A stretch of DNA of 56,088 bases from a bacterium (GTDB lineage: Bacteria; Patescibacteriota; Minisyncoccia; UBA6257; GWB1-50-10), in assembly GCA_021812365.1 (NCBI GenBank), contig JAKANQ010000003.1, positions 1 to 56,088 on the forward strand, read 5' to 3'. The position numbers and the translations under genes were made by a program. The notes under the pieces are model-generated. The model was not told where the DNA came from, searched no databases, and saw only the letters and a list, made by a program, of their open reading frames with translations. Positions 36,171 through 39,678 of this stretch are shown in pieces (positions within the stretch are counted from its first letter, which is position 1; each line of letters opens with the position of its first letter).

Positions 36171-36332
36171 CTCTTGTGCCCCCACAGGAAGAGTACTTCC
36201 GTGGTGGCACTGCGTTCGGAAATACGAATATGCTCTCTTGTGCCCCCTCAAGCGGAGTACCGCGTGAGGGCACTGCGTTCGGAAATAAAAAAACACCTAC
36301 TGGCGTTTTTTAATTTCCTCTCTTGTGCCCCC
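36171..36332 (-). repeat. Trailer repeats of tRNA-Lys: two 64-nt-period hairpin units, each ending in a copy of the tRNA 3' end
   Basis: CTCTTGTGCCCC at 36171, 36235 and 36320; GGCACTGCGTTCGGAAATA twice; stems differ but keep pairing. Confidence 0.8.
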
Positions 36333-37161: not shown

Positions 37162-38664
37162 ATGAAAACCAAGATTCCCGCTGAAATAGAGGATATTGCG
37201 CGCATTCTGTCCGATGCGGGTTTTGAGGCATATCTTGTGGGCGGTTCCTTGCGGGACATGCTTTTGGGAGTTTCGCCCAAGGATTGGGATATTGCGACGA
37301 ATGCCACACCCGAAGAGACACAGAAACTTTTTGCCACCTATGGCGGACGCACGTTGGAAGACCCCGCTACGGTGTACGAGAACTCATTTGGAACGGTGGG
37401 AATAAAGACCGAATCGAAAGATGAATCGTTGAAGATAGTTGAGGTGACCACGTTCCGCGTGGAGGGCAAGTATACCGATAAGAGGCATCCTGATGAAGTT
37501 CAATTCGCAAAGACGGTCGAGGAGGACTTGAGCCGCAGGGATTTCACCATAAATGCGATTGCCTTCAATCTTGCGAATCACTCGCTTTCCAAATCCCACC
37601 TTGTTGACCCATTCAATGGGATGGATGATCTGCAGAAGAAATCATTGCGTACGGTGGGCGACCCCAACAAGCGATTCGAGGAAGACGCGCTTCGTCTTAT
37701 GCGCGCCGTCCGATTTGCGGCACAGCTTGGTTTTGAGATAGAGCACCAGACCATGAATGCAGTGAAAGAAAACGCCGGACTTTTGGATGTGATCGCGAAG
37801 GAAAGGATTCGCGATGAATTTTCAAAACTTATCATGACTCCGCGCGCCGCGATGGGGATAGTGATGATGGAGGACATGGGACTTTTGAAATTTGTGATTC
37901 CGGAACTCCGCGAGGGTATCGCGTGCGGGCAGAACAAGCATCACATCTATACGGTATTCGACCATAACGTGCGCGCGTTGAATTACACCGCGGAAAAGGA
38001 GTATTCATTCGTGGTTCGCATGGCCTCGCTTCTGCATGATGTGGGAAAGCCGCGCACCAAGGGGGGCGATGGTCCCGATTCGACGTTCTACAACCACGAG
38101 GTGGTAGGCGCTCGGATGGCCGTGAAGATATTGGACAGGTTGAGATTCTCAAAGGAGCATATCGAGAAGATATCGCATCTTGTGCGGTGGCATCTCTTTT
38201 ACTACAACGTGGGCGAGGTGACGGAAGCGGGCGTGCGGCGTTTCTTAAGCCGTGTAGGCTTGGAAAATGTCGATGACCTTTTGAAGGTGCGTGAGGCGGA
38301 TAGAATCGGTTCGGGCGTGCCGAAAGCATTTCCGTACAAGCTGCGCCACTTACTCTTCATGATAGACAAAGTGAAGAACGACCCCATTAGTCCGAAAATG
38401 GTGAAGTTGAACGGTGACGAGTTGATGAAGGAGCTTCAATTAACGCCGAGCAGAAAGGTGGGATATATTCTCTCCATCCTTTTGGAGGATGTGATTCAGG
38501 ATCCTGCGAAGAATGAGAAGGAATATCTCATCGCGCGCGCGAAAGAACTGAATGTGTTTGATGATGTGGAGCTGTCTGCAATGGCTGATAAGGCAAAGGA
38601 GCATGCCGATGAGTTTGAGGAGGGCATTGAGAGGGAGATGAAGAAGAAGCATAAGGTGGCATAA
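37162..38664 (+). CDS. cca: CCA-adding tRNA nucleotidyltransferase with HD domain
   Basis: YLVGGSLRD, DWDIAT, DLSRRDFTINA, RFEEDALRLMRAVRF, ERIRDE, LLHDVGKP, FYNHE. Confidence 0.88.
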   Translation: MKTKIPAEIEDIARILSDAGFEAYLVGGSLRDMLLGVSPKDWDIATNATPEETQKLFATYGGRTLEDPATVYENSFGTVGIKTESKDESLKIVEVTTFRVEGKYTDKRHPDEVQFAKTVEEDLSRRDFTINAIAFNLANHSLSKSHLVDPFNGMDDLQKKSLRTVGDPNKRFEEDALRLMRAVRFAAQLGFEIEHQTMNAVKENAGLLDVIAKERIRDEFSKLIMTPRAAMGIVMMEDMGLLKFVIPELREGIACGQNKHHIYTVFDHNVRALNYTAEKEYSFVVRMASLLHDVGKPRTKGGDGPDSTFYNHEVVGARMAVKILDRLRFSKEHIEKISHLVRWHLFYYNVGEVTEAGVRRFLSRVGLENVDDLLKVREADRIGSGVPKAFPYKLRHLLFMIDKVKNDPISPKMVKLNGDELMKELQLTPSRKVGYILSILLEDVIQDPAKNEKEYLIARAKELNVFDDVELSAMADKAKEHADEFEEGIEREMKKKHKVA

Positions 38665-38713
38665 TATGCTTTTCAGCCCAAAGTAAAAACGCGTCGAAAC
38701 GCGTTTTATCTTG

Positions 38714-38784
38714 TCGGGCTGCTGGGAATCGAACCCAGTCTACACGCACCCGAAGCGTGCGTACTACCGGTATACTACAGCCCG
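38714..38784 (-). tRNA. tRNA-Pro (CGG)
   Basis: CGGGCTG/CAGCCCG acceptor, CACGC-TTCGGGT-GCGTG, TTCGATT T-loop; no encoded CCA. Confidence 0.95.
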
Positions 38785-38790
38785 TAGAGA

Positions 38791-38942
38791 GGAGCAAAAT
38801 GAACAGTAGGTTCATTTTGTCCGAACGACCGGGATGCAACCTTCTGAGGTTGTAGAGCCCGAATGGAGAAGTAAGCTTCTACTTACAGTCCGAAGTGTTT
38901 TGTCCGAATGCCTGAGGAGTAAGCCTTCGCTTATGGTCCAAA
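38791..38942. repeat. Array of four hairpins with GGR...YCC(G/A)AA closure next to the tRNA-Pro 5' end
   Basis: Units 38791-38826, 38831-38863, 38865-38894, 38916-38942; extra TCCGAA at 38903. Confidence 0.65.
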
Positions 38943-39000
38943 GTGCCTATATACTGTATATGAGTTCCAAAAATTAGTAAATAATGGATAATAAATAGAC

Positions 39001-39678
39001 ATGAAGGCAATTATTGTGGGCGATAAGGCAAAGATCATTTTGCCGATGGTTAAAAAATACGGATTCTCAATCGTTGAGAAAAAACCCGATTTTATCGTGA
39101 GTTATGGCGGCGATGGGACGCTTATGATCTCCGAATATATGTATCCGGGAGTTCCCAAGATAATTCTAAAAGGAAGCCTTATCTGTAAAAAAGCCTCGCC
39201 TCTCCCCAATGAGGAGGTCTTGAAACGCGTGAAGGCGGGGAAGTATGAGATTGAAAAGGCGTGGAAGCTTGAAGCGAACGCGAACGGCAAAGCACTTTTG
39301 GGATTGAACGACATTGTGGTCCATAACAGCAATACGCGTCACGCGATGCGATACACCGTGTCGGTCGATGGAGCGGCAATTGGCGGAGGTATCATCGGTG
39401 ATGGAGTGGTCGTCTCAACACCATTCGGTTCTACGGGATACTATCGCAGCATCACCGACAGCTCATTCGAGGTGGGGATGGGGCTTGCGTTCAACAACAG
39501 TACCGAGCAGGCGGACCATATTGTTCTGAACGAAGAAAGACGTCTTTTAATAACGGTCACGAGGGGGCCTTCAACGGTATATGCGGATAATCAGGAAGAT
39601 TCGATAGTGTTGCAAACAGGAGATCTTGTTGCCATCAATAAATCAAAGCAATACGCGAAGATAGTGCGGCCAAAGTAG
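39001..39678 (+). CDS. NAD kinase (short form)
   Basis: SYGGDGT, LND, GDG..VSTP.GSTGY. Confidence 0.88.
   Translation: MKAIIVGDKAKIILPMVKKYGFSIVEKKPDFIVSYGGDGTLMISEYMYPGVPKIILKGSLICKKASPLPNEEVLKRVKAGKYEIEKAWKLEANANGKALLGLNDIVVHNSNTRHAMRYTVSVDGAAIGGGIIGDGVVVSTPFGSTGYYRSITDSSFEVGMGLAFNNSTEQADHIVLNEERRLLITVTRGPSTVYADNQEDSIVLQTGDLVAINKSKQYAKIVRPK

Follow-up and report, generated by a model that had tools for sequence, protein, structure and literature searches.

Gene-less hairpin cassettes built around copies of the tRNA gene start form an array 5' of tRNA-Pro(CGG) in a patescibacterial genome

A compact row of hairpins separates tRNA-Pro(CGG) from the NAD kinase gene in a Patescibacteriota genome (626 kb in 25 contigs, 98% complete). 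Is this row a regulatory RNA, a cluster of DNA repeats or the product of some other process, and how did it come to lie at the start of a tRNA gene? We addressed these questions computationally in a stretch of 56,088 nucleotides (positions 1 to 56,088 of contig JAKANQ010000003.1), here called the window, and in related genomes. Genomes, contigs and loci are numbered with the prefixes G, C and L. Features of the locus are collected in Table 1.

Table 1. Features at and around the hairpin array (window coordinates)
Feature	Position	Strand	Sequence or basis
CCA-adding enzyme gene	37162-38664	+	
Terminator-like two-way hairpin	38686..38708	both	ACGCG-TCGAA-CGCGT, A and T runs flanking; sequence read
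tRNA-Pro(CGG)	38713..38784	-	ARAGORN; Rfam tRNA model 57.3 bits
Hairpin 1	38791-38822	+	GGAG, 10-bp stem CAAAATGAAC/GTTCATTTTG, TCC, then GAA
Hairpin 2	38831-38860	+	GGGA..CCC, then GAA
Hairpin 3	38865-38891	+	GGAG, stem GTAAG/CTTAC, AGTCC, then GAA
Extra TTTTGTCCGAA	38898-38908	+	sequence read
Hairpin 4	38916-38939	+	GGAG, stem TAAGC/GCTTA, TGGTCC, then AAA
Cassette 1, linkers and intact A core	38785..38830	-	UUCGGA-CAAAAUGAAC-loop-GUUCAUUUUG-C-UCC-UC; covaries; model R2 matches 38787-38826, - strand, 57.8 bits
Cassette 1, B minihelix	38830..38864	-	degenerate upstream a CGGGCUC, inner hairpin CAACC/GGUUG, a' GCAUCCCG; covaries; model R1 matches 38827-38864, - strand, 41.3 bits
Cassette 2, decayed	38865..38894	-	B-type hairpin GGAGAAGTAAG..CTTACAGTCCGAA (+ strand), resembling the B units of L005 and L009; A core lost; sequence read
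Cassette 3, decayed, A remnant and linker	38895..38915	-	3' half of A hairpin, TTTTGTCCGAA (+ strand)
Cassette 3, decayed, weak B-type hairpin	38916..38942	-	GGAG-TAAGC-CTTC-GCTTA-TGGTCC-AAA (+ strand); -6.5 kcal/mol on both strands (hairpin scan)
Promoter-like block, conserved	38950..38985	-	alignment with relatives
NAD kinase gene	39001-39678	+	

The four hairpins and one half hairpin described in an earlier sequence-only reading are present at 38785-38945 when the + strand is read. Each hairpin has a loop of 4-6 nt and is closed by GGR..YCC, followed by GAA or AAA. The hexamer TCCGAA occurs at 38820, 38889 and 38903; as it is not enriched across the window (48 sites versus 52.6 expected), its three copies within 90 nt represent a local cluster. 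When folded as RNA, the array was more stable than shuffled sequences on both strands (z = -3.1 for + and -3.2 for -), and a single-stranded DNA fold of 38770-38870 (+ strand) gave z = -6.1 against shuffles. No Rfam family was found within the array, either at gathering thresholds or at E values up to 10, and only tRNA models matched; eight related loci likewise gave nothing up to E = 1. A weak RT-15 match (13.8 bits, cut-off 82) spans the tRNA and runs into the tRNA start. Another weak match, to permuted tmRNA (22 bits), was rejected because it consists of the T arm and the terminator. This match is due to CAGCCCAAA at 38665-38675 (+ strand), which lies past the tRNA-Pro terminator, overlaps the end of the CCA-adding enzyme gene and reads TTTGGGCTG on the - strand, where it could pair with the 3' acceptor strand of tRNA-Pro.

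BLAST of the own genome with the array detected no second copy. When 40 relatives were searched at the DNA level, similarity to the tRNA extended into the hairpins in the same genus and in one neighbouring genus, and the base motif shared by the hairpins recurs at these related loci, as seen in the relatives' sequences. Homologous arrays lie directly 5' of tRNA-Pro genes in six of the eight genus genomes and in G012, with two to five units each, and the tRNA-Pro arrays of relatives cover all three anticodons (CGG, GGG and UGG). Two covariance models, R1 for one hairpin type (B) and R2 for the other (A), provided the further copies. R1 matched solely at tRNA-Pro loci (19 places in 7 of 41 genomes, two genera). 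R2 matched in addition 5' of tRNA-Ala(CGC), tRNA-Ala(GGC), tRNA-Ile(GAT) and tRNA-Lys, and also alone in 3'UTRs, where the copies have matched flanks of their own; family-wide, it was found in 21 of 96 genomes and 13 of 43 genera.

Comparison of many loci revealed a common order of parts within each unit. Read on the tRNA strand, a unit consists of an inner hairpin (UAAGC-loop-GCUUG), a segment a', a short linker, the A core, a second short linker and a segment a. Next to a tRNA gene, a is the first 9-10 nt of that gene: CGGGCUGUA for Pro (the first 9 nt in tRNA-Pro(CGG)), GGGCCUGUA for Ala, GGGCGUGUA for Ile and CCCCCCGUA for Lys. In stand-alone copies, a has the tRNA-start-like form N7-UAA. 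Segment a' is a near-complement of a, 7-10 nt in length, and is individually fitted to the local tRNA at the Ala, Ile and Lys loci. The A hairpin reads RYUCGGA, a stem with a conserved GAAAUGA/UCAUUUC core, and C-UCC-UC-RY; the B hairpin reads CGGGCUGUA, a short variable hairpin and GCAUCCCG. Each cassette, which carries no gene, is a folded structure with an inverted copy of the adjoining tRNA gene end on one side and a direct copy on the other. At tRNA-Ala, the copy ACAGGCCC corresponds to the complement of the 5' strand and differs from the true tail with its G3.U70 pair, indicating that a cassette copies the adjacent gene end.

The pairing within these units is conserved. The sequences flanking the A core are locus-specific inverted repeats, pairing over a mean of 8.4 bp at 47 loci compared to 5.1 bp with permuted partners (highest permuted mean, 5.8 bp). 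In A and B, 93-96% of cells in the alignments were paired, versus 34-56% with slid partners. Both hairpins covary, with compensatory changes in relatives, and for each the covariation score was reached by none of 500 shuffles; the covariation of the A core lies in the stem and the lower 2 bp. The B minihelix is formed by an upstream copy of a paired with a', and requires successive units with identical a, as in tRNA-Pro arrays. In G058, successive a segments differ and the only pairing left is that of a' and a around A, so the long a'-A-a hairpin is the primary structure. All B hairpins examined are mismatched at stem position 4, 5 or 6, and many retain a U.G pair. A small peptide read from AAAUGA in the A stem was considered and discarded, as several copies have AUA in place of the AUG, which is therefore not conserved, and the frames differ.

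With this anatomy, the array in the window is a stack of about three cassettes, with an intact cassette at the tRNA and two decayed cassettes farther out. In hairpins 2-4, the building blocks are the first 9 nt of the tRNA gene itself, present as a copy and as a near-complement, a relationship that the sequence-only reading had missed. The extra TTTTGTCCGAA, which that reading had proposed as able to pair alternatively with the first arm, is the 3' half of a decayed A hairpin and has a counterpart in the same remnant of the relative L007. The likeness of TTCGGR to the anticodon loop of tRNA-Pro is a coincidence, since the motif also flanks cassettes at the GGG and UGG isoacceptors and at Ala, Ile and Lys tRNA genes.

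The own genome contains two matches to the A model and three to the B model. A second array lies at tRNA-Pro(GGG) (C12:3520-3640, locus L031). This array has a third hairpin type (GGAGTGGAAACGCATAAT..) where A would be, and a B variant, GTAGGGCCC, that it has in common only with the array in the window, which suggests exchange between the two arrays within the genome. Directly before tRNA-Ile(GAT) in a 16S-23S spacer (C9:99497-99640, L038), an A core is accompanied by two B-type hairpins whose arms copy the tRNA-Ile start GGGCGUG; G003 and G060 have the same layout. Within the window itself, the trailer of tRNA-Lys (36171-36324) carries two cassettes of the same grammar on the strand opposite to the tRNA. 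Their a segment is antisense to the 3' end of tRNA-Lys, and R2 does not detect these copies. They share with the array a AGAGAGGA linker, an AGUAG loop and CCGAACG. Stand-alone A cores at orthologous positions in three genomes (L040 in G006, L048 in G002 and L049 in G004) lie behind a PilB-like ATPase gene, judged by its C-terminal residues only, and differ by compensatory U-A to C-G changes in the stem.

Cassettes of this kind were also sought more widely. A scan of metagenome contigs identified three contigs, all in a single sample; one of them, equal in length to G004:C8, may be identical with it. A pattern scan of genome contigs returned two Patescibacteria MAGs among the matches listed, most of which were due to chance. 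Eleven viral contigs with a 16-mer match were dismissed as chance as well, as none had a model match. No description of such cassettes was found in a literature search, and they apparently represent a repeat family of the ultra-small Patescibacteria without prior description.

The position of the array relative to transcription signals was examined next to the tRNA. The sequence-only reading had placed a leader of roughly 160 nt upstream of tRNA-Pro, behind a candidate promoter on the - strand (TTTACT at 38981-38976, a 17-nt spacer and TACAGT at 38958-38953). A block containing this candidate is conserved upstream of tRNA-Pro(CGG) in relatives, where it reads TTATTTACTAA..CTCATATA, also given as TTATTTACTAA..CTCATATATATT, in agreement with the proposal; the candidate itself scores under the threshold of a consensus scanner. 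The distance between the block and the tRNA is 42-56 nt in array-less relatives, 127 nt at L004, which has one cassette, and 197 nt in the window. Because the array lies between the conserved block and tRNA-Pro, it is expected to be transcribed as a leader of about 160 nt, and should therefore belong to the tRNA-Pro transcription unit. On the other side of the tRNA, the two-way hairpin at 38686..38708 would end both this unit and the convergent CCA-adding enzyme gene, although no call was made there by the scanner. RNase P is expected to remove the leader. The own genome has an RNase P RNA at C5:22133-22668 (99.6 bits, Rfam cut-off 100); its gene is directly upstream of tRNA-Thr(CGT), and the spacer carries a minihelix built from the tRNA-Thr start.

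A different arrangement was found in four relatives. At G001:C4, G002:C19, G004:C8 and G006:C2, tRNA-Pro and its array follow the CCA-adding enzyme gene directly and in the same orientation; these loci lack the promoter block, with no space for a promoter between the two genes; the array in these genomes would be an mRNA-tRNA spacer. In a comparison of window positions 37162-38945 with these four genomes, G000 and G005 have tRNA-Pro and its array in inverted orientation with respect to the CCA-adding enzyme gene.

Cassette content differs among close relatives. Orthologous loci within the genus carry between zero and five units, and neither G003 nor G007 has an array at the orthologous tRNA-Pro locus; the own tRNA-Pro(UGG) lacks one as well. 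Array-less relatives (L011-L013) read CAGCCCG followed immediately by AGTG and then the promoter, while the filled site L004 reads CAGCCCG, then cassette..CAGCCAG, then AGTC and the promoter; the junction CAGCCCG|AGTG is common to empty and filled sites. As seen from L011-L013 against L004 and the window, cassette presence varies with sharp boundaries at the tRNA end. A shorter-array variant, with a loose end at 38851, co-occurs in the same metagenome samples (short unitigs). Among these short unitigs there were no joints of an insertion or deletion inside the array, and neither an excised or circular cassette nor an insertion segregating in a population was seen, which counts against insertion. 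DNA of the organism is present in mine-drainage samples. By eye, the tRNA-proximal cassette is intact and the outer ones are truncated in the window, L005, L031 and L038.

Similarity among A units does not track the relatedness of the genomes. The A unit of the window is 98% identical to the tRNA-Pro(GGG) copy of G004 and 95% identical to the second tRNA-Pro(CGG) cassette of G002, versus 75% identity to the tRNA-Pro(CGG) copies of G005 and G001; for the adjacent gene of the CCA-adding enzyme, identity is 71-73% with each of these four genomes. The a' segment of the genus is CAUCCCG. It is fully complementary to CGGGAUG, with which UGG-type tRNA-Pro begins (own genome C13; G110), yet is located, with one mismatch, at loci where the tRNA starts with CGGGCUG. 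The presence of a UGG-type a' at CGGGCUG loci would be expected if a' moves along with the cassette and the target supplies a.

We favour, with moderate confidence, the explanation that the array consists of site-directed, gene-less palindromic insertion cassettes, the transcribed copy of which would be removed as a leader by RNase P. Cassettes would enter, or duplicate, exactly at the tRNA start, with a' as the putative target-matching segment. The newest cassette would then adjoin the tRNA, and older ones would be shifted outward and decay. Each new cassette would leave an extra copy of a upstream, and this copy together with a' would give the B minihelix. With the stack between promoter and tRNA, transcription would include it as a leader of about 160 nt, which RNase P would then cleave away. 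Under this model the stack would have no dedicated job, and could still slow or disturb folding of the tRNA.

Insertion at such sites would presumably involve an enzyme, and candidate genes were surveyed. Searches of the eight genus genomes found neither Y1 transposase nor TnpB, which counts against the favoured explanation. Within the genus, IS110 occurs only in G007, a genome without cassettes, and reverse transcriptase only in G003, G004 and G007. The only tyrosine recombinase gene found in the own genome (C18:682-1194) lies next to tRNA-Leu(TAG) (C18:536-1194).

Several known systems resemble the cassettes in part. In E. coli, the tyrT distal repeats (rtT RNA) are tandem non-coding units beside a tRNA gene that carry a copy of the tRNA end and are transcribed with the tRNA; they lie 3' of the tRNA, are about 178 bp in length and copy the 3' end without an inverted copy. 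By analogy these repeats provide the closest layout, from which the cassettes differ in their 5' location, inverted copy and A hairpin; rtT gave no Rfam match within the array (E up to 10). Folded single-strand recombination sites are known from integron attC and from CTX phage attP(+), which is recombined by XerCD. Both are imperfect hairpins of inverted and direct copies of the target core with conserved mismatches, and serial integration regenerates the target and builds arrays. The cassettes appear analogous in their hairpin with inverted and direct target copies, their fixed mismatches and their arrays, but they are about 75 nt long, no integron integrase or phage was recognised with them, and their target is a tRNA gene start instead of attI or dif; no RYYYAAC/GTTRRRY boxes were seen in them. 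IS200/IS605 elements such as IS608 have hairpin ends, read a short target through an internal base-pairing segment and have non-autonomous palindromic derivatives. Target recognition by pairing may be a common feature, whereas no Y1 transposase was found in the carrier genomes of the cassettes and the target is 7-10 nt and varies by locus. Plant mitochondrial t-elements and mascRNA are acceptor-stem-like hairpins within longer transcripts that RNase P or RNase Z could recognise. The B hairpins, whose likeness to them is one of predicted fold, differ in having no T arm and a mid-stem mismatch. Finally, attL/attR scars of tRNA-targeting integrative elements, in which direct repeats of the tRNA 3' part surround an element with an integrase, were rejected as an explanation: here it is the 5' end of the tRNA gene that is repeated, and the inserts, of about 75 nt, contain no gene.

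The main rival, which we regard as unlikely, is a functional leader RNA that gates maturation of the tRNA. Such a leader would act through two pairings with the tRNA, that of a' with the 5' acceptor strand and that of the upstream a copy with the 3' acceptor strand, in competition with the acceptor stem and hence with RNase P. The B hairpin (a with a') would form first during transcription and free the tRNA, and a factor bound to the A core could shift the balance. The minimum-energy fold of the 233-nt precursor predicts exactly such a strand swap, although a thermodynamic fold leaves out tRNA tertiary structure. A switchable leader had been among the proposals of the sequence-only reading. 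Its switch through the extra arm falls with the identification of that arm as a decayed remnant, while a different switch may operate, as the leader is predicted to be able to compete for both acceptor strands. The complementarity of a and a' is kept at 47 loci of differing sequence and the A core is conserved over 13 genera with covariation, in favour of a gating role; this role is opposed by the absence of the array from the orthologous locus of two congeners and from the own tRNA-Pro(UGG), by the decay of outer cassettes and by unit number and order that differ among congeners.

Strand-specific features of the hairpins bear on the same question. Wobble pairs show no strand preference (6 versus 9 in A, and 2 versus 3 in B apart from one fixed U.G), and the same type of unit lies antisense to tRNA-Lys in the same window; both argue against a gating RNA. 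Conversely, the orientation of the A core relative to transcription is constant at all of the approximately 25 tRNA-linked loci and at 7 of 10 stand-alone loci. This is also predicted by an RNA role and counts against insertion cassettes, as does the mid-stem mismatch or U.G pair of B, the retention of which looks selected. A model tied to the replication strand was rejected, as both orientations occur within 2.5 kb in the window. Overall, a DNA-level element is favoured by the G.U balance, the copy antisense to tRNA-Lys, the decay of outer cassettes and the array-less congeners, and an RNA role by the constant orientation of the A core, its conservation across genera, the B mismatch and U.G pair and the predicted strand swap in the precursor. 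The array is more likely selfish or neutral DNA that is co-read with the tRNA than a purpose-built regulatory RNA.

An explanation without any insertion is that the hairpins arose from one local duplication of the tRNA start and spread by tRNA-seeded ectopic recombination or gene conversion, with slippage changing their number. We consider this rather improbable as an account of the whole. The arrays are periodic, no transposase was found, and the tRNA-Pro paralogues are 78-97% identical, which would supply the homology for conversion; in G006, the A units at two tRNA-Pro loci are 98% identical. Gene conversion among these paralogues could explain part of the similarity within a genome. However, tRNA homology leaves unexplained the Ala, Ile and Lys cassettes with their individually fitted a and a', the stand-alone 3'UTR copies with matched flanks of their own and the UGG-type a' at CGG and GGG loci.

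More speculatively, the cassettes could represent a nucleic-acid-guided mobile element without a protein of its own, in which a' selects the insertion site through pairing with the opening 7-10 nt of a tRNA gene (N7-UAG) while cutting and joining fall to a host enzyme, and/or the leader could act as a competitor for both acceptor-stem strands that sets the speed of tRNA-Pro maturation. We assign this a low probability.

The sequence-only reading had also considered a REP-like cluster. REP and BIME elements of enterobacteria and pseudomonads are gene-less, short imperfect palindromes that are clustered in variable number at transcription-unit ends and in 3'UTRs and are co-transcribed. The cassettes share these traits, being dispersed palindromic units without genes at transcript boundaries, intergenic and in 3'UTRs, and to this extent the comparison holds. 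Mobilisation by a RAYT (Y1) transposase is largely refuted and, in our judgment, very improbable. The cassettes have heads of GGAG or GGGA with no constant GTAG-type head, occur in few copies per genome, and have flanks that are not constant; these flanks are target-specific, complementary to each other and match the tRNA start. Searches for PF01797 gave no match in the own genome (98% complete), the seven other genus genomes or G012, and did give matches in control genomes. Among 41 relatives, 11 encode this domain; these have no B match, nor any A match in the first search, with the caveat that a different genome of one PF01797-bearing genus (g15) matched A in the family-wide search.

Equally improbable is an RNA array that binds protein multivalently or serves as a guide, in the manner of a CsrB sponge or of TIGR stem arrays: the hairpins do share a GGA..UCC base, and TIGR arrays, which feature an adjacent Tas (Nop-domain) gene, box C/D-like motifs and spacers in loops, have been reported in CPR bacteria (PMC12045711), yet here the GGA is paired and not looped, the units are heterogeneous and decaying, no box C/D-like motifs were seen in the loops at the locus, and no Tas gene lies beside the array, the neighbours of which are the CCA-adding enzyme and NAD kinase genes.

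The cassette array is a real, conserved and unannotated structure, and its 5'-side form is apparently new. Loss of useless DNA is the expectation for genomes of about 0.6 Mb; this lineage nonetheless keeps and renews gene-less hairpin cassettes at the ends of tRNA genes. In the 5'-side form, the copied segment is the adjacent gene end and not the 3' tail of the tRNA, the conserved pairing is that of a' with whatever comes after the A core, and an a' that belongs to one type of tRNA can be found next to another, mismatched at just one position. With these three features, the choice of site by the cassettes becomes testable. For annotation, the cassettes account for many "structured" intergenic regions in Patescibacteria. 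Where organisms rely on RNase P and a CCA-adding enzyme, the leaders may also hinder the folding of tRNAs.
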